Of a stretch of DNA of 64,000 nucleotides, positions 13,847 through 26,353 are shown piece by piece. Positions within the stretch are counted from its first letter, which is position 1. Each line of letters begins with the position of its first letter. This stretch comes from Paracoccaceae bacterium. Its GTDB lineage: Bacteria > Pseudomonadota > Alphaproteobacteria > Rhodobacterales > Rhodobacteraceae. The notes under the pieces were generated by a model, which worked only from the letters and a program-made list of their open reading frames with translations, made no database searches and was not told the DNA's origin. The stretch covers positions 61,262 to 125,261 of the forward strand of contig JASMHC010000013.1 of the NCBI GenBank assembly GCA_030750975.1, in the 5' to 3' direction. The translations under genes and the position numbers were made by a program.

Positions 13847-14914
13847 ATGGGGACGAGCTTTCGTGGCACGTTCGTCATCTCCTGGTCGCAAACTGAAGTG
13901 GACGGTCTGAGGGCCGGAACACTTCAGTCGTTAATGACAGGATCGGTTTGGTCCTGGCGGGGTGAGGCAGTGCGCGTGGATGGTCCGCATGGCGTGCTCA
14001 GCCTGACCGGCGCGATGGGAGAGACAGAAACCCGTGAACGGGCGGCGAAGGCCGTGCGCCGTTTGGTCGGCGCCGCCGTCTCGGGCATGGCCTTGCCTCT
14101 GGAAGAGGTCGACAGCGACATCCCGCGCGATGAAAGCAGCTTTGTCGTCACCGACGGCAAGCGGGCCTATACGATCACCATAATCGAATTGGGCGAAAGC
14201 GGCGCGCGGCTGTTGATGTTTGTCGATTGCATCCCGCCGGCCAATACCGATCTGTGGATCGTCCATCATTCGTTGAAGGAACGCGAAGTCACCCGTCAGG
14301 TGACTGATGCGGGCGGGGTGATCTGTTTTACACCGGGCACGATCGTCGACACGCTTGACGGGCGTATTCCGATTGAACATCTGCAAGAGGGCGATCTGGT
14401 GCTGACCAAGGATAACGGTCCGCAGGAAGTGCAATGGATCGGCCGCCGCCGCATGACCGGTGCGCGTCTGTTTGCCATGCCGCATCTGCGCCCGATCCGT
14501 ATCCGCTCGGAATCGCTGGGCGTGCTGCGGCCGGATCAGGAATTGCTGGTCTCGCCCGAGCACCGGATTTTGCTGCAAGGCCCGCTGGCACGGGCGCTGT
14601 TCAACACGCCCGAGGTGCTGGTTTCCGCGCAGGAACTGGTGAACGGCAAGGATGTGTTCGTGGATCACGCCTTGAAGGAAGTCACCTATATTCACGTTTT
14701 GCTGCCCCGGCACGAAGTGGTCTGGGCCAATAACGTGGAAACCGAAAGCTTCCATCCGGCCAGTGCTTCGCTGAGCACTTTGGATGACAGCGACCGCGAG
14801 CGTCTGCTTTACTGGATGCCCGAGATTGGCCATGATCCGGATTATTACGGCGATCTGGCCCGTCGGGCATTGACCCCGGCAGAAGCGGCCCTTCTAAGCC
14901 AGGGCGTGGCGTGA
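13847..14914 (+). CDS. Hint-domain (bacterial intein-like, BIL) protein with an uncharacterised N-terminal region
   Basis: Hint module from Cys160 (CFTPGTIVDTLDGRIPIEHLQEGDLVLT) to ...HEVVWANNVETESF. No homing-endonuclease domain and no recognisable host enzyme. Confidence 0.75.
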   Translation: MGTSFRGTFVISWSQTEVDGLRAGTLQSLMTGSVWSWRGEAVRVDGPHGVLSLTGAMGETETRERAAKAVRRLVGAAVSGMALPLEEVDSDIPRDESSFVVTDGKRAYTITIIELGESGARLLMFVDCIPPANTDLWIVHHSLKEREVTRQVTDAGGVICFTPGTIVDTLDGRIPIEHLQEGDLVLTKDNGPQEVQWIGRRRMTGARLFAMPHLRPIRIRSESLGVLRPDQELLVSPEHRILLQGPLARALFNTPEVLVSAQELVNGKDVFVDHALKEVTYIHVLLPRHEVVWANNVETESFHPASASLSTLDDSDRERLLYWMPEIGHDPDYYGDLARRALTPAEAALLSQGVA

Positions 14915-20081: not shown

Positions 20082-21083
20082 TTATGGCAGCGATATCCGT
20101 GGGGCGTCGCCCAGCATCAGCGGGCCGAGCCAGATTTTGCCATTGGTGAAATCAAAGGGCAGGTCGAGCGTTGACGGATTGCCGGACAGGCCGGAAATCA
20201 GGGTTAGGGTAAAGTCGATCTGATCCAGAACCCGGGGCGAAAGGCGGCCGGATTTGCGTTCCTTTGCCAGCATGTCGCGCCAGTTGCGGACCTTGACGGT
20301 GATCTGGCCCACCGGGGTGCCGGAGGGTGTGATGTCAAGATCTCCGGCCGCGGCAAGGGTCAGGCCCGACCACCGGGCATCGGCCAGGTTCAGGCGCAGC
20401 GCAACCGGTTGCGGGCGGGCGTTTTCAACCGCGCTGCGGTCCAGCGGTGCCGACAGGGTCAGGTCGATATCGGCGGTCAGCCGCTCGATCGGCGGCTGGT
20501 TGCCATCCTGTCCGGTGATGTTGATCCAGCCGGGCAGGGCGCCTTTGACCCCGCGCGCATCCAGCGCCAGCTGATAGATGGCGTCGCCGGTTTCGGATTG
20601 TTGCAGGCTGAGCTGCATGACATCGGCGGTAAGATCCCAGTTGGCATCCGAGGCGACATTCAGCCCTTCGGTCACAAGGATCACCCGCTGGGGCTGCCAG
20701 CGCGAGACATCGGCCATTTCCAGGCTGGCCCGCATGTCGGCGGTGGTCAGGGTGATCGCCTCGTCCGGGGTGGCGAAGCTTTGCGTATTGGGCCAGACGG
20801 TGATCAGGTGCGCCGGGTTATAGGTGAAGCGGAAGAATTGCAGGAACGGGGCTTCCCAGAAGAGACCGCTTTCGGGATCGCCCAGCCTTGGGGCGGTCAG
20901 GGTGGTGTCCAGCCGGTTGGGGAAGCCGAAGATTTGCAGATCGGAATAATCCGCTGCCCAGCCTTCGGCGCGGCGGGCGTCAAACCAGTTGGCAATGGCG
21001 GTTTTCTGGGCACTGGCCGACCAGGCCCAGAAGCCCGCCCATAAAAGCGCCGCCGCAATGACGATAAATGTCAGCCGTTTCAT
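20082..21083 (-). CDS. DUF2125-like secreted/membrane-anchored protein
   Basis: N-terminal signal/anchor MKRLTFIVIAAALLWAGFWAWSASA. Family assignment is from memory of alpha-specific DUF2125. Confidence 0.5.
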   Translation of the reverse strand: MKRLTFIVIAAALLWAGFWAWSASAQKTAIANWFDARRAEGWAADYSDLQIFGFPNRLDTTLTAPRLGDPESGLFWEAPFLQFFRFTYNPAHLITVWPNTQSFATPDEAITLTTADMRASLEMADVSRWQPQRVILVTEGLNVASDANWDLTADVMQLSLQQSETGDAIYQLALDARGVKGALPGWINITGQDGNQPPIERLTADIDLTLSAPLDRSAVENARPQPVALRLNLADARWSGLTLAAAGDLDITPSGTPVGQITVKVRNWRDMLAKERKSGRLSPRVLDQIDFTLTLISGLSGNPSTLDLPFDFTNGKIWLGPLMLGDAPRISLP

Positions 21084-21147
21084 GCGTGATCCCTTTTGCT
21101 TGCGTGCCATATGGTGTTTAGAAGGGCGGAAAGGCAAGGACCTGATC

Positions 21148-21702
21148 ATGACTCTTTGGGTATTCGGCTATGGATCGCTTTTGTGGAACCCCGGTTTTGA
21201 ACCGGCGGAGACCGAGATTGCCACGCTGGAAGGCTATGCCCGCAGTTTCTGCATGCGGTCGATTCACCATCGCGGCACCGAGGACGACCCCGGCCTGGTG
21301 CTGGCGCTGGACAAATCCGAGGACGCCATGTGCCACGGCATGGCCTTGCGCGTTCGCCCCGGCGAGGAAGACCGCGTGCTGACCGAACTGCGCGAGCGCG
21401 AGCTGATATCCTCGGCCTATTACGAGGATCACGTGATGCTGGGGCTGGAAGATGGCCGCCGGATCGAGGCGGTGGCCTATATCATCGATCCCGATCATGT
21501 TCAGTATTGTCATCTAGAACTGGAAACCCAGGCCCGGATCATTGCCCGCGCGGTTGGCGGGCGGGGTCCGAACTGGGAATACCTGTTCAACACCTCGGCC
21601 CATCTGAACGAGGTGGGGCTTGAGGATGCCGATCTGAATTGGTTGACCCAGCGGGTGGGCGACCTGATGAAACAGGCGCCGGGCGGATCGGACCGGGCCT
21701 GA
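21148..21702 (+). CDS. ChaC-family gamma-glutamylcyclotransferase
   Basis: N-terminus MTLWVFGYGSLLWNPGF is the ChaC/GGCT signature. Confidence 0.75.
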   Translation: MTLWVFGYGSLLWNPGFEPAETEIATLEGYARSFCMRSIHHRGTEDDPGLVLALDKSEDAMCHGMALRVRPGEEDRVLTELRERELISSAYYEDHVMLGLEDGRRIEAVAYIIDPDHVQYCHLELETQARIIARAVGGRGPNWEYLFNTSAHLNEVGLEDADLNWLTQRVGDLMKQAPGGSDRA

Positions 21703-21854
21703 TCCCGCAACTGGCAGAGGCTTGAAGGGATCCTTGCGTGATCGGGCCGCGCCGTCTTTGTGCCCATTGGCGCAGTGCTTTTGGATAGCCCTTGGCTTGG
21801 GCCAAGCTTTTGCCTATGGTCCGCGCTAAATCACCAGCCTTGGGAGACGTCCGA

Positions 21855-23042
21855 ATGGGCATGCTGGAACCAGAGGTCAAAGCGCAGTTTTCACAACCTT
21901 TCCGCCAGATCATGCTGATGCTGATCGTGCTCGGCCTGACGGCCGCGCTTGTGGTGCTGGCCTATCCGCGCGTGTCGTCGGTGTTTCTGGCGAACCCGTG
22001 GTTGAACGGGGTTATCGCCGGTGTGTTTGTCATCGGCGTGTTGGCCTGTTTTTTTCAGGTGGCGCAGATGATGTCATCGGTGCGCTGGATCGAAGGCTTT
22101 GCCGCCCAGACACCGGGGCACGAGCTGACGAAGGCTCCGCGCCTGCTGGCCCCTTTGGCGGCGTTGCTGCGGTCGCGTGGCAAGCAGATGCAAATCTCGG
22201 CCAGCTCGTCGCAATCGATATTGGATTCCGTCGCCAGCCGGATCGAGGAAGTGCGCGACATCACGCGCTATATCGTCAATACGCTGATCTTCCTTGGCCT
22301 GCTGGGCACATTCTATGGTCTGGCCACGACCGTACCGGCGCTGGTTGATACGATCCGGTCGCTTGTGCCCGACGAGGGCGAGGCCAGCGTTGCGGTATTC
22401 TCGCGTCTGATGGCGGGGCTGGAATCGCAGTTGGGCGGCATGGGCATTGCCTTTGCGTCGTCGCTGCTGGGGCTGGCGGGATCGCTGGTTGTGGGCTTGC
22501 TGGAACTGTTTGCCGGTCACGGCCAGAACCGGTTCTATCGCGAGCTTGAGGAATGGCTGTCGACCATCACCCGGCTGGGCATTGCCACCGGTGACGGCGA
22601 AGCGTCGCCTGAACAATCGGCGATGGTGATGATGGCCGATCATTTGTCGCAGCAGATGGAAATGCTGCATGCGATGATCGCCAAATCGGACCAAAGCCGG
22701 CAGGCGGCGGATCAGCGGCTGGAGCAATTGATGGTCTCGATGGACCGGATGACCGACCGGATGCGCAGCGACGACAGCTCGGAACTGATTGCGCGGGTGG
22801 TTGACGGGCAGACCCGTCTGATCGAAGCGCTTGAAAAGACCGGCGCCGGTGGCGGGGCCGAAATTGACGCCGAAAGCCGGATGCGTCTGCGCAGCATGGA
22901 TCAGCAGCTTTTGAAAATCCTGGAAGAATTGTCTGCCGGACGGCAGGAAGCCATGGCCGAGCTGCATAACGATATCGCCGCCCTTCACCGCAGCCTGCAA
23001 CAGCTTGCCCCCGGACGCGGCGGCCCCTTTAGCGAGGGCTAG
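21855..23042 (+). CDS. MotA/TolQ/ExbB-family proton-channel protein with a ~150-aa C-terminal helical tail
   Basis: Four TM segments. MotA_ExbB signature region IFLGLLGTFYGL ... GIAFASSLLGLAGSLVVGLLELF. GGGAGA RBS before ATG 21855. Confidence 0.7.
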   Translation: MGMLEPEVKAQFSQPFRQIMLMLIVLGLTAALVVLAYPRVSSVFLANPWLNGVIAGVFVIGVLACFFQVAQMMSSVRWIEGFAAQTPGHELTKAPRLLAPLAALLRSRGKQMQISASSSQSILDSVASRIEEVRDITRYIVNTLIFLGLLGTFYGLATTVPALVDTIRSLVPDEGEASVAVFSRLMAGLESQLGGMGIAFASSLLGLAGSLVVGLLELFAGHGQNRFYRELEEWLSTITRLGIATGDGEASPEQSAMVMMADHLSQQMEMLHAMIAKSDQSRQAADQRLEQLMVSMDRMTDRMRSDDSSELIARVVDGQTRLIEALEKTGAGGGAEIDAESRMRLRSMDQQLLKILEELSAGRQEAMAELHNDIAALHRSLQQLAPGRGGPFSEG

Positions 23043-23044
23043 GG

Positions 23045-25747
23045 ATGGCGCTTCACCGCCGAACGGGTTCGCGTTTCCAGGCCTCGATCTGGCCGGGATT
23101 TGTGGACGCGATGACAGGGCTGCTTTTGGTTCTGATGTTCGTGCTGACCATCTTTACCGTGATCCAGTTCGTGTTGATGGAAACCATCTCCGGCCAACAG
23201 GACGAAATGGGCGAACTGACCGCCGAGGTTTCGGCCCTTGCAGATGCGCTGGGTCTGGAGAGGGACCGAACCGCGCAATTGACCGATCGGGTCGGGTCGC
23301 TTGAAACCACGCTGGATGACGCCGAAGCGCAGGTGGCCGCGCAGATCGCGATGATCGCATCGTTGCGCACCGATCTTGCGGGGCGCAACGCGGCGCTTGA
23401 CGACGCCAACGCGCGGATCACCGCGTTCGAGGATCAGGTTGCCGCCCTGCTGTCGGAACAGGCGGATGCCGTCGCGCGGATTACCGATCTGGAAGCGGCG
23501 GAAGATGCCTTGCTGACCGAGCAAGAGGCGTTGAACCTTGCCCTGGCCTCGGCCCGGTCCGAGATAGACGCCCAGGTCGAAGCGGCGCGGCTGGCGGCAG
23601 CGCGTGAGGAAGCGCTGAATGCGCTGGTTGAGGATTTGCGAAGCCAGAATGCCGACACCAATGACAGCCTTGCCGCCGCTTTGGCCGAATTGACAGGCGA
23701 ACAGGACAAGGTTCAGGCCCTGTCGCAAGAGCTGTTTGATACTTTGGCGAAACTGTCGGACACGGAAGACAGGCTTTCGGATACCGAACTGGCGTTGCTT
23801 GAGGAAGAAAAGGCCAAGCTGGCCGAACAGGCCGCCGTGGCGGCGCTGCGTGAACGCCTGTCGGAAACCCAGGCAGAGCTGAGCGACGAGGAAAAAGCCA
23901 AACTGGCCGAGGCCGCGGCGGCGGAAGCCCTTCGCGAGCGGTTGAAGAACGCCCAGGCCGAACTGACCGCGATGACGCTTGCCTTGGACGAAAAGCGCAA
24001 AGAAGCCGAAGAAACCCTGACCTTGCTGGCCGCGTCACGATCGGCAGAGGAAGGATTGAACGAAAAGCTGGCGGCGGCTTTGCTGGCCAATGCCGAACTG
24101 GACCTGAAGCTGAACGAAACCCGTGCGGCGCTGGACGCCGCATCGCAGGCGCGTGAAGACGCCGGATCGAAGCTGACCTCGGTCGAGGCGGCTTTGGTGC
24201 AGGCCTTGCTGGATCTGGACGAAGGTACAGCGGCGCGGAACGAAACGCAGGCCCGTCTGGCCGAGGCTGATCAGGCGCTGTCGCGGGCGCGGGATCGCGA
24301 ACGGGTGCTCGAGCGGCAATTGGCGGCGTTGCGCGTGCAGATCGACAGCGGCGAGACCGCTTTGGGTGACATGACCCAACGCTACGAGGCGGAACTGGCG
24401 GCACGGCTTGAAGCCGAGGAAGCGGTCAATCAGGCAGGTGCAGCGCGCAGCGAATTGACCAGCCTTCTGGCCTCGGCCCGCACGGCCGCCGAAATCGCCA
24501 ATGAAACAGCGCAGGCGGCGTTGGCCTCGCAGGCGGCCAGCGAAGCGCGGGTTGGCGAATTGAGCGACGCCCTGGCGCGGGCGCGAGCCAGCGCCGAAGA
24601 AGCGGCGATTGACGCGGATCAGGCCCGCGACCTCGCGGCCGAGCTTGAGCTGCGTCTGGCCCAGGTTCTGGCAACGCGCGACGAACTGACCGCCAGCCGC
24701 GACGATCTGGAAACCCGATTGGCCGCGGCGCTTGCCTCGCGTTTGGCGGCGCAGGCCGAAGCGGACAGCGCGGCTGATCTGCAACAGGCCTTGGCCAAGG
24801 CGCTTGAAGCCAAGCTTGCGGCGGAAAGTGCCGCGCAAAACAGTGATGCGCAACTGGCCGAGGCCGAAAAATCCCTGACCGAACTGCGTGCCCGTCTGGC
24901 AGAGGCATTGTTGCAGCAGCAAACCGCCGACGAAATCGCCGCCGCCCGCATAAGCGATGCCGAGCGGGCCGAGGCCCTGTTGGCAACCGCAAGGCAGGAA
25001 CTGGCCGAGGCGGAAGACATCAATGCCAAATCGCAGCGCGAAATGGAGTTGCTGAACCAGCAGGTTGCCGATCTGCGTGTGCAAATGGGCAAGTTGCAGG
25101 CGCTGGTGGACGAATCCGAAGCCAAGGACGTGGCCGCGCAGGTGCAAATCACCGCGCTGGGCAACAAGCTGAACACCGCTTTGGCCCGCGCCACCGCAGA
25201 AGAGCGGCGGGCGCGTCAGGCCGAGGAAGAGGTGAACGCGCTTCTCGAGGCCGAGAAGGCGCGGCTTGAGGCCGAAAACGAGGCTTTGGCAAGATACCGT
25301 TCAGACTTTTTCGGCCGCCTGCGTGAATTGATCGGCGACCGCGAGGGTATCCAGATTGTCGGGGACCGTTTCGTGTTCTCGTCCGAGGTGCTGTTCTCAT
25401 CCGGCGAGGCCGAGCTGTCGCCCGAAGGCCGAAACGAGATCGGAAGCATTGCCGATCTATTGCTGGACGTCACCCGAGAGATCCCGCCCGAGATCGACTG
25501 GATTATCCGTGTAGACGGTCACACCGATAATGTGCCGTTGCGCGCCGGGGCCGAATATGCCGACAATTGGGAATTGTCACAGGCCCGTGCCCTTTCGGTC
25601 GTGCGCGATCTGGTCGACGGGCACGGCTTTGATCCGGCCCGGCTTTCGGCCAACGGGTTCGGGGAATTCCAGCCACTGAACCGGGAAAACACCGCCGCGG
25701 CCCGTGCCCAGAACCGCCGGATCGAATTGAAACTGACGGAAAGATAA
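23045..25747 (+). CDS. MotB-like protein: TM anchor with conserved Asp, ~700-aa coiled coil, C-terminal OmpA/MotB peptidoglycan-binding domain
   Basis: WPGFVDAMTGLLLVLMFVL (MotB-type Asp21). Ala/Glu/Leu-rich heptad region. C-terminus has TDNVPL, NWELSQARALSV and NRRIELKL. Starts 2 nt after the MotA-like stop. Confidence 0.75.
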   Translation: MALHRRTGSRFQASIWPGFVDAMTGLLLVLMFVLTIFTVIQFVLMETISGQQDEMGELTAEVSALADALGLERDRTAQLTDRVGSLETTLDDAEAQVAAQIAMIASLRTDLAGRNAALDDANARITAFEDQVAALLSEQADAVARITDLEAAEDALLTEQEALNLALASARSEIDAQVEAARLAAAREEALNALVEDLRSQNADTNDSLAAALAELTGEQDKVQALSQELFDTLAKLSDTEDRLSDTELALLEEEKAKLAEQAAVAALRERLSETQAELSDEEKAKLAEAAAAEALRERLKNAQAELTAMTLALDEKRKEAEETLTLLAASRSAEEGLNEKLAAALLANAELDLKLNETRAALDAASQAREDAGSKLTSVEAALVQALLDLDEGTAARNETQARLAEADQALSRARDRERVLERQLAALRVQIDSGETALGDMTQRYEAELAARLEAEEAVNQAGAARSELTSLLASARTAAEIANETAQAALASQAASEARVGELSDALARARASAEEAAIDADQARDLAAELELRLAQVLATRDELTASRDDLETRLAAALASRLAAQAEADSAADLQQALAKALEAKLAAESAAQNSDAQLAEAEKSLTELRARLAEALLQQQTADEIAAARISDAERAEALLATARQELAEAEDINAKSQREMELLNQQVADLRVQMGKLQALVDESEAKDVAAQVQITALGNKLNTALARATAEERRARQAEEEVNALLEAEKARLEAENEALARYRSDFFGRLRELIGDREGIQIVGDRFVFSSEVLFSSGEAELSPEGRNEIGSIADLLLDVTREIPPEIDWIIRVDGHTDNVPLRAGAEYADNWELSQARALSVVRDLVDGHGFDPARLSANGFGEFQPLNRENTAAARAQNRRIELKLTER

Positions 25748-25779: not shown

Positions 25780-26199
25780 TTACCCGGCCAGATAAGCCCG
25801 GGCCTTGCGGCGCACATCATCGGGAATGACAACGGCTTTGCGTGTCTCAAAGCTTAGCAGGGCCAGTTTCGCCGTGCTTTCGAAGCACAGCTTGTCGCCG
25901 TCCGTCTGGAAAAGCCGATGGTGGAAGGTCATCGATTTTGTGCCGATGGCTTTGATTTCGGTCGTCATGTAGATGGACTCGCCTACTTCAAGCTCGGCGT
26001 GGAAATCTGCCTGAATATGCACCACGGCAAAAGACAGTTTGCGGCCCTCGCGCAGGTCTTTGGCGGTCAGACCCAACAGGGTTTGAAAATTCGCCACCGC
26101 ATCGGAACATGCCACGAAATAGCGCGACACATTCATATGTCCAAGCGCATCGCAATCCTTTGGCTCAACGGTGCTGCGATAGGTTTCGGTGGCTGGCAT
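25780..26199 (-). CDS. 4HBT-type hotdog thioesterase
   Basis: 140 aa with CDALGHMNVSRYF motif. ATG 26199 has AGGAGC upstream. Confidence 0.7.
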   Translation of the reverse strand: MPATETYRSTVEPKDCDALGHMNVSRYFVACSDAVANFQTLLGLTAKDLREGRKLSFAVVHIQADFHAELEVGESIYMTTEIKAIGTKSMTFHHRLFQTDGDKLCFESTAKLALLSFETRKAVVIPDDVRRKARAYLAG

Positions 26200-26258
26200 T
26201 GCAGGCTCCTGCTGGGTGTTATGCAAGCGTAGAGGGCAAGCGCAATCGGCGACAAGAG

Positions 26259-26286
26259 AAAACCCGCGGACGGGGCCGCGGGTTTT
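26259..26286 (-). terminator. rho-independent terminator downstream of clpA
   Basis: AAAACCCGCGG-ACGGGG-CCGCGGGTTTT; symmetric A/T tracts allow function in both directions. Confidence 0.6.
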
Positions 26287-26353
26287 GCTGTGACGTTGCG
26301 AAACGCCAGGCGCTTCGCCCTTTTGTTGGGACATGGCGACGGGACGAAAGGCT

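Follow-up and report, generated by a model that had tools for sequence, protein, structure and literature searches.

What does a stator-like gene pair do when it is embedded among housekeeping genes and one of its two products carries a predicted coiled coil of about 700 residues? This question is raised by a 64-kb stretch of DNA from a Paracoccaceae bacterium (hereafter the window), in which two adjacent plus-strand genes, here called A and B, occupy positions 21855-25747. Gene A (21855..23042) encodes a 395-amino-acid putative channel and rotor subunit of the TolQ/ExbB/ZorA type, and gene B (23045..25747) encodes a 900-amino-acid peptidoglycan-binding protein of the PRK09039 family that is a putative stator and axle subunit. 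We lean toward the view, with a little better than even confidence, that the two proteins form a proton-driven 5:2 motor of the MotAB/TolQR/ExbBD/ZorAB class that is anchored to the cell wall by a rigid stalk and serves a housekeeping role in the envelope. The elements of this view that are directly supported are the gene structure, the fold class, the conserved residues, the continuity of the coil, the distribution of the family, and orthology to a gene pair of Komagataeibacter hansenii.

A channel-like subunit and its wall-binding partner

A first-pass annotation of this DNA described a coupled pair of genes separated by 2 nucleotides, and this description is confirmed. The open reading frame list places A within 21792..23042 (+) and B at 23045..25747 (+). 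In the former frame, the ATG at 21855 is preceded by GGGAGA and yields a 395-residue protein identical to one public protein of that length; it is the likely start of A, judging from the sequence. The junction between the genes reads TAG-GG-ATG with GAGGG just 5', and the distance from the stop of A to the start of B is 4 nucleotides or fewer in 79 of 89 related loci. Tight coupling of A and B is therefore a conserved property.

Hydropathy analysis finds four hydrophobic segments in A (residues 19-37, 52-70, 140-162, and 198-216), and the earlier picture of a protein with four transmembrane (TM) segments and an additional C-terminal helical tail of about 150 residues holds. The TM1-TM2 hairpin (21909..22064, +) includes a conserved ANPxLNG motif, of which N51 and I54 are invariant in a 39-sequence family alignment, and its helices span residues 16-44 and 48-83 in an AlphaFold2 (AF2) model. 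The region comprising TM3, a periplasmic loop, and TM4 (22272..22502, +) carries FLGLLGTFYGL in TM3 and AFASSLLGL in TM4, and here G148, G151, T152, and G155 of TM3, together with A199 and F200, are invariant across the same 39 sequences. The predicted cytoplasmic tail (22587..23039, +; residues 245-395) is made up of three helices, modeled at residues 252-305, 308-331, and 339-384. Homologues with 30-60% identity align with A through residues 380-390, and by this measure the tail is kept across the family. The AF2 model, which was built on the diverse 39-member alignment, has a predicted local distance difference test (pLDDT) score of 84, and its top 47 Foldseek matches in the PDB are exclusively TolQ, ExbB, or ZorA chains (probability 0.75-1.0, with at least 0.89 in 46; TMt 0.31-0.57). 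The model thus has the characteristic helical fold of the MotA/TolQ/ExbB/ZorA superfamily.

The original assignment of A as a MotA/TolQ/ExbB-type protein is upheld by this fold, whereas the Pfam MotA_ExbB model stays below its threshold. Indeed, no Pfam or NCBIfam model scored above threshold on A, and A consequently lacks a curated model in either collection, although 23 of the 39 relatives in the family alignment match MotA_ExbB weakly (E ≤0.01). When A was compared by hhalign with single Escherichia coli TolQ, ExbB, and MotA sequences, only the TM3 motif was aligned: FLGLLGTFYGL falls on YIGLFGTVWGIM of TolQ and FVGLFGTVWGIM of ExbB, and lines up with TolQ T145 and ExbB T148. A channel-lining Thr is known in both TolQ and ExbB, and this alignment indicates that the invariant T152 of A corresponds to it. 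The underlying G-x-x-G-T-x-x-G pattern, with its Thr in the penultimate TM segment, matches the GLFGTVWG of TolQ/ExbB. On sequence, A is best described as a remote member of the MotA/TolQ/ExbB/ZorA superfamily, and the label "MotA/MotB-type" is valid at the superfamily level only.

Among individual sequence models, those of ZorA are the nearest to A. The PADLOC ZorA1 model matches A at E 1.6e-8 over model positions 105-255 of 683; all 39 family members match ZorA1 (best E 1.6e-16) and 37 of them match ZorA3. A resemblance to the Zorya defense system, previously noted from protein architecture, is thus borne out as the closest sequence relationship. Sequence searches of the PDB with A returned mostly coiled-coil matches, with ZorA reaching E 0.0025 at best, and the NCBIfam model ZorA_4 (NF033917) gave 17 bits against a cutoff of 500.

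Gene B was said to encode a 900-residue protein with one TM helix and a conserved Asp, and this is what we find. Residues 15-44 (23087..23176, +) include the motif IWPGFVDAMT, in which Asp21 lies, and the single TM segment at residues 26-44. The motif is at least 90% conserved across 75 B orthologues. The N-terminus is basic and would therefore be cytoplasmic. Within this region, D-x-M-T is common to E. coli MotB and P-x-F-[VI]-D is common to ExbD. At the other end, the C-terminal module (25295..25744, +) consists of a YRSDFFGRLR helix, GDRFVFSSEVLF, and an OmpA-like peptidoglycan-binding domain, which Pfam places at residues 783-891 (nucleotides 25391-25717; E 5e-17). The last 190 residues resemble the C-terminal domains of MotB and PomB in the PDB (E 2e-16 to 1e-12), and conservation across the 75 orthologues extends to DGHTD, NWELSQARA, and NRRIELK. 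The first-pass description of a canonical OmpA/MotB C-terminal domain with the NWELSQARA and NRRIELK motifs is accordingly sound; the MotB_plug model gives no match on B.

Profile searches separate B from flagellar proteins. Against the NCBIfam MotB, MotD, and MotS models, B falls below every cutoff (MotD, 99.7 against 283; MotB, 80 against 301), whereas it passes NF006542 (PRK09039.1-1, "peptidoglycan-binding protein," an NCBIfam equivalog) with 720 bits against a cutoff of 388. By these scores, B is a member of the catalogued but functionally blank NCBIfam family PRK09039 (NF006542-NF006546). It also matches the PADLOC model ZorB3 at E 1.2e-21.

The stalk of B

Between the membrane segment and the wall-binding module lies a predicted periplasmic coiled-coil stalk of about 700 residues (residues 45-750; 23177..25294, +). 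Residues 51-770 contain 25% Ala, 15% Leu, 13.5% Glu, and no proline over 720 residues, and all 25 non-overlapping 28-residue windows in this protein share one heptad class. Across 71 B proteins, the median heptad coherence is 1.0, compared to 0.61 for phase-scrambled sequences, and heptad phase indicates that the coil begins directly after the TM helix. A weak single-sequence AF2 model of B (pLDDT 57) is helical over residues 55-763 and leaves residues 47-54 unstructured before the first stalk helix. As read from its register, the stalk has no free-length linker anywhere, although it may contain fixed hinges. At the coiled-coil rise of 0.148 nm per residue, a straight stalk of this size would measure about 104 nm, and the earlier statement that it is too long to bridge membrane and wall perpendicularly is correct.

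The heptad-like region of some 700 residues had been presented as a feature of the module. Its heptad character is confirmed, but its length is a lineage-variable expansion and not a fixed trait of the family. The 75 complete orthologues range from 435 to 1126 residues (median 620) and only five exceed 900, whereas B proteins outside the Rhodobacterales usually have 320-440 residues; one non-Rhodobacterales metagenomic lineage has independently arrived at 935. Family-wide, B lengths therefore run from 320 to 1126 residues, and the stalk forms a continuum of 150-930 residues (about 22-138 nm) in which the very long coil is one end and not the norm. The short forms, with about 150 residues and 22 nm, fit a perpendicular bridge from membrane to wall, and the long forms cannot.

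Stalk lengths are also quantized. The spacing between WPGFVD and the YRSEFF motif, which lies just ahead of the wall-binding domain, takes 59 unique values over a range of 179-961 residues. Of these values, fifty belong to classes 0, 1, or 4 modulo 7 (chi-square p = 4.6e-8), and no bias was seen on the same distances with moduli 5, 6, or 8-11. Insertions and deletions of heptad multiples, combined with zero, one, or two four-residue stutters, produce exactly the classes 0, 4, and 1. The B gene of the window shows this mechanism of stalk growth directly, in the form of a tandem duplication (23801..23968, +) of 84 bp, corresponding to 28 residues or four heptads (residues 253-280 and 281-308). 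The repeated unit, EEKAKLAE..ALRERL...AEL, was read from the translation; TRF and self-BLAST did not call the 84-bp duplication. Paired hairpin-like matches, 84 nucleotides apart at 23824 and 23908, lie within it.

A stalk of this kind invites the explanation that nothing moves at all. B would then be a passive tether or periplasmic scaffold, a strut from inner membrane to wall or a filament-like element, with A as its membrane chaperone or anchor. The long coil and the wall-binding domain do make up most of B, and no region varies more than the stalk, as in structural spacers. However, a passive anchor would have no need of the conserved membrane Asp of B or the invariant TM3 Gly/Thr motif of A, both of which are hallmarks of an ion pathway, and the tight coupling of A and B is kept across bacterial classes. 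We therefore consider a purely passive role to be unlikely.

The same rigidity could instead serve a sensor of envelope strain, in which the wall-anchored stalk reports membrane-to-wall geometry during osmotic shifts, wall damage, or growth by gating an A/B channel. The tail of A would relay this signal to cytoplasmic partners encoded elsewhere, such that the sensing logic of Zorya is used for housekeeping and no continuous work is done. The proximity of A to the ZorA models and the conserved cytoplasmic tail agree with such a role, and a register-continuous stalk that lacks a flexible linker or plug would pass tension straight to the TM helices. On the other hand, no signaling partner or effector adjoins the pair in any lineage examined, the tail has only about 150 residues, and a calibrated gauge is difficult to reconcile with stalks that differ seven-fold in length. 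This account also strikes us as improbable, and we return below to the motor as the preferred interpretation.

Genomic context and the Komagataeibacter orthologues

Profiling of the distribution and neighborhood of the pair across Alphaproteobacteria, which the first-pass annotation had proposed, revealed conserved contexts in Rhodobacterales and in other orders. The A family comprises 2283 clusters at 50% identity with E ≤1e-3, of which 409 have E ≤1e-30. Cluster look-ups returned mostly unnamed metagenomic proteins, and a second large protein search with the family profile added only further Rhodobacterales. B is directly downstream of A in 80 of 80 Rhodobacterales loci, and the same order is found in eight loci from outside this group (L081, L084-L087, and L091-L093). 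The 80 Rhodobacterales genomes share the arrangement DUF2125(-)-ChaC-A-B-...-ClpA(-)-gloB-methyltransferase-atpH. Because this neighborhood is fixed, the pair behaves as part of the core genome, and it is a core-genome module and not a defense island.

A second conserved context, efp-suhB-(X)-A-B-ABC exporter(-)-rpmE, is present in other Alphaproteobacteria. Gene X lies just 5' of A (L081:4596-5930, L086:2192-2848, L087:4483-5232, L091:5335-6960, and L093:3526-4377 (-)) and encodes a secreted protein with a long low-complexity spacer rich in Pro, Ala, Thr, and Glu, followed by a degenerate OmpA-like C-terminus of about 100 residues. We searched for gene X in the window and in the 80 Rhodobacterales loci, where it is absent; in non-Rhodobacterales lineages, X may belong to the system as a third component. 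Other named carriers of the pair include Shinella, the Acetobacteraceae Limobrevibacterium and Rhodovastum, and a metagenome-assembled genome of the gammaproteobacterium Nitrococcus. In Sinorhizobium meliloti, A has 368 residues and B has 342, and this B protein passes NF006544 with 692 bits against 362. We take S. meliloti to be a flagellated species with characterized flagellar mot genes elsewhere in its genome, and the A-B pair there would thus be a separate system. The S. meliloti sequence in PLSDB (CP090106.1; L092) is labeled "Sinorhizobium meliloti plasmid pSymB," is 3.72 Mb long, and carries rpmE, purE/K, thiE, and suhB. It looks like a chromosome mislabeled as a plasmid, and the same probably applies to the matching Sinorhizobium and Shinella "plasmids" of 3.5-4.6 Mb.

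These contexts bear on whether the pair is a Zorya-type anti-phage system, either as a minimal variant or with effectors encoded elsewhere. Its best arguments are the profile matches already described, with ZorA1 and ZorA3 as the best models for A and ZorB3 as a match for B. Nevertheless, A falls far below the ZorA_4 cutoff and its tail is several-fold shorter than the ZorA models of 683-692 positions. Defense islands are patchy in distribution, whereas this pair has one fixed housekeeping neighborhood in 80 genomes and another (efp-suhB ... rpmE) in other orders. The absence of ZorC- and ZorD-like genes after the pair, remarked upon previously, also holds: no ZorC, ZorD, or ZorE gene stands beside A and B in the window neighborhood or in the 80 related loci. 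A defense function is, in our judgment, very improbable.

Information on function comes from a bacterium that has no flagella. In K. hansenii, "motA" encodes a 348-residue protein with four TM segments and "motB" a 321-residue protein with one TM segment and an OmpA-like domain (Jacek et al. 2019, PMC6570709). The published primers encode the N-terminus MTRPTTY and the C-termini ...TNHSAS and ...EFRLTDR (PMC6570709). In the metagenome collection, the motA primer matches exactly at a single place, on contig L093, which encodes proteins of 348 and 320 residues with the primer-encoded termini in the order suhB-X-A-B. The A protein of the window aligns with the 348-residue protein over its full length, tail included (34% identity, E 3e-48), and the window B aligns with the 320-residue protein at both ends. 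The latter passes NF006543 (PRK09039.1-2). From the primer match, the termini, the alignments, and this family assignment, we conclude that the K. hansenii "MotAB" proteins are orthologues of the A-B pair. They represent the short form, with a stalk of about 150 residues, and, unlike the window, K. hansenii carries an extra gene 5' of the pair, whose secreted product has a degenerate OmpA-like domain.

Upon overexpression in K. hansenii, cells become elongated or form chains, colonies spread three-fold faster, and the cellulose is looser; disruption mutants survive, spread less, and make denser cellulose, and fusions to green fluorescent protein (GFP) are polar (PMC6570709, PMC7347698, PMC8268586). 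The authors read the pair as a motility-related proton pump of the flagellar type, proposed no further mechanism, and left its partner open (PMC6570709). These phenotypes, which come from K. hansenii only and are limited to overexpression, disruption, and GFP fusions, suggest a part in cell separation or elongation, in surface spreading, and in the architecture of extracellular polymers. The earlier claim that no function has been characterized for the module therefore needs qualification, since the family is functionally blank but B is catalogued (PRK09039.1-1) and phenotypes have been published for K. hansenii (PMC6570709). Our survey of the literature on PRK09039, ZorA-like, and MotAB-like proteins and of reviews on 5:2 motors found no description of the family.

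Public annotations name A homologues "flagellar motor protein MotA" or "biopolymer transporter ExbB," and many such names imply a spare or specialized flagellar stator, that is, a MotAB paralogue. The four-TM topology of A, the D-x-M-T motif of B, and a C-terminal domain like those of MotB and PomB are what such a stator would have. Against this, the A profile matches E. coli MotA with an hhalign probability of 4.7%, A has no match among the curated Mot models, and B stays under every MotB, MotD, and MotS cutoff. S. meliloti carries the pair in addition to what we assume to be separate flagellar mot genes. No flagellar genes are found among the window neighbors of the pair, and orthologues exist in a genus without flagella (PMC6570709). 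We give scarcely any credence to a flagellar function.

The immediate surroundings in the window are likewise of a housekeeping nature, and the earlier statement that no flagellar, Tol-Pal, or TonB genes are adjacent stands. One flank holds rpsD, two aminotransferases, tyrC, DUF2125, and ChaC, and the other holds a thioesterase, ClpA, gloB, a methyltransferase, and atpHAGD. No TolA, TonB, TolB, or Pal gene is present in the window neighborhood of the pair, and the 64-kb window contains no TolQ/ExbB/MotA-like gene besides A. Just 5' of A, the DUF2125 gene (20082-21149, -) and a ChaC-like gamma-glutamylcyclotransferase gene (20989-21702, +) are divergent; of the 80 related loci, 72 have the DUF2125 gene there and 77 have the ChaC gene. 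The TTG start listed for ChaC lies within the DUF2125 gene, so the true start is probably near 21150. In the unrelated locus L081, too, there is a ChaC gene at a distance of 2.5 kb from A and B. On the other side, a 4HBT-type thioesterase gene (25780-26334, -) converges on B and ends 33 nucleotides away. It was likened to ybgC, which lies upstream of tolQ in E. coli tol operons, and this comparison was dropped after the gene was found in none of the 80 syntenic loci; the resemblance is probably a coincidence. Finally, a 355-residue Hint_2 protein (E 2.5e-53) is encoded at 13847-14914 (+), 5' of rpsD, and 20 of the 80 related loci have it at this position as well.

Upstream of A, a candidate promoter of the alphaproteobacterial type, CTTGGC-N17-CTATGG, can be read from the sequence at 21791..21819 (+) in the intergenic region between ChaC and A. 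Its motif CTTGGCTT recurs 5' of A in 11 of 44 related loci. A scan of the region 5' of A for the sigma-70 consensus gave no promoter match, and no CtrA box was found upstream of A. Several weak matches to a hairpin followed by a T run at 21736-21806 (+), also between ChaC and A, suggest that A and B are transcribed separately from ChaC.

Proposed mechanism and relation to known motors

In the motor that we favor, two B chains would place their TM helices, each with its Asp21, inside a ring of five A chains, and the ion path would be lined by the invariant Thr152 of TM3 and the Ser-rich TM4 of this ring. The B dimer would leave the membrane as a rigid, register-continuous parallel coiled coil and end in paired OmpA-type domains on the peptidoglycan, so that B would be the axle that stays fixed. 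Protons flowing along the Asp21/T152 path would then turn the A ring and its bundle of cytoplasmic tails relative to the wall-anchored B, and the A tail would, as in ZorA, deliver the output or bind a partner. Most lineages have a stalk of about 150 residues (~22 nm), which roughly matches the distance from membrane to wall. In Rhodobacterales, heptad-preserving insertions have lengthened it to 60-140 nm, and the ~104-nm stalk of the window would have to run at a slant to the wall or alongside it. As a housekeeping envelope machine, the motor would be neither flagellar nor defensive. We place its role in envelope, division, or surface processes because of the K. hansenii phenotypes and because flagellar and defense roles have been set aside.

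Several points weigh against this proposal. The 5:2 stoichiometry and the rotation are carried over by analogy from the solved MotAB, ExbBD, TolQR, and ZorAB complexes, and we infer both which part is fixed and what the cellular role is. Pfam MotA_ExbB (PF01618) gives A only 12.1 bits against a cutoff of 22.9 (E 0.17), and MotB_plug (PF13677) was not found in B, even when an 80-residue N-terminal fragment was searched at E ≤10. The weak single-sequence AF2 model of B contains six short helix breaks that could be real hinges. A stalk of at least 100 nm has no obvious mechanical role in a periplasm of 20-30 nm. A partner for the A tail was not found among nearby genes in the window or the 80 related loci. 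Lastly, the K. hansenii phenotypes derive mostly from overexpression, and the MotB-GFP result is unreliable because the fused C-terminal end is periplasmic. Sec-exported GFP does not fluoresce.

A more ambitious version of the motor hypothesis, which we offer tentatively as a possibility, is that the pair is the housekeeping sister, and possibly the ancestor, of the Zorya motor. It would constitute a new functional 5:2 class with, as its axle, a periplasmic coiled-coil rod that is torsionally stiff, 20-140 nm long, and bolted to the peptidoglycan. Under this hypothesis, long rods would lie along the inner face of the wall, and the motor would walk or twist relative to its distant wall anchor or would register strain that arises in-plane between the membrane and the wall. 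The rotating cytoplasmic tail would pass the output on to the machinery for division or envelope growth.

Some of this was known beforehand: stator-like 5:2 motors as a kind, the B family as a catalogue entry, and one orthologous pair with crude phenotypes. What is new is the recognition of A as a ZorA-like subunit without a curated model, of the pair as a housekeeping cousin of Zorya across Alphaproteobacteria, and of the stalk as a heptad-quantized rod, about 100 nm long here, together with the assignment of the Komagataeibacter "motility genes" to this family. The database names "flagellar motor protein MotA" and "biopolymer transporter ExbB" are thereby corrected, and the work on these Komagataeibacter genes that is used in cellulose engineering is reinterpreted. 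Since A is the nearest sequence relative of ZorA outside defense islands, it could show what Zorya was recruited from. The stalk provides a natural length series in heptad steps, which would make the pair an unusually clean system for studying how a wall-anchored axle is coupled to a membrane rotor. Moreover, bacteria that are amenable to genetics, such as S. meliloti, have the pair in their core genome.

Ion-driven 5:2 motors are understood to some degree in five classes: flagellar, Ton, Tol, gliding/type IX secretion system (T9SS), and Zorya. The A-B pair would be a sixth, widespread motor lineage, found in Rhodobacterales, Rhizobiaceae, Acetobacteraceae, and at least one gammaproteobacterium. 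Its link to PRK09039 is that the window B, the S. meliloti B, and the Komagataeibacter-type B pass sister models of that family, whose name gives no function and is silent on the partner A. TolQ and ExbB are among the best structural matches of A, and TolQ-TolR and ExbB-ExbD share with the pair the TM3 motif GL(L/F)GT(F/V)WG and an Asp-bearing partner with a single TM segment. However, A has four TM segments compared to three in TolQ and ExbB (PMC6570709), and B has an OmpA-type domain in place of the periplasmic domain of TolR or ExbD, with no transducer resembling TolA or TonB. MotA-MotB and PomA-PomB have in common with the pair the four-TM topology of A and the D-x-M-T motif of B, and the wall-binding domain of B is closest in sequence to the solved MotB and PomB domains. 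In contrast, B has a coiled coil where MotB has a plug (none was detected in B) and a linker, the A profile scarcely matches E. coli MotA, and the pair is not linked to flagellar genes.

The most extensive likeness is to ZorA/ZorB of Zorya (PDB 8vvn and 8qyd). In both systems, A is a TolQ/ExbB-like channel subunit that runs into a cytoplasmic helical tail and B combines a TM Asp with an OmpA-type peptidoglycan-binding domain, and the ZorA hidden Markov models score best for every A-family member tested. The pair differs from Zorya in its core-genome location without ZorC, ZorD, or ZorE and in its scores far under the curated ZorA cutoff. Its synteny is fixed across Rhodobacterales, and the patchy, island-like distribution of Zorya is not seen. 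The tail of A has about 150 residues compared to models of 683-692 positions for ZorA, and the long element is carried by the periplasmic B subunit here and by the A subunit in Zorya.

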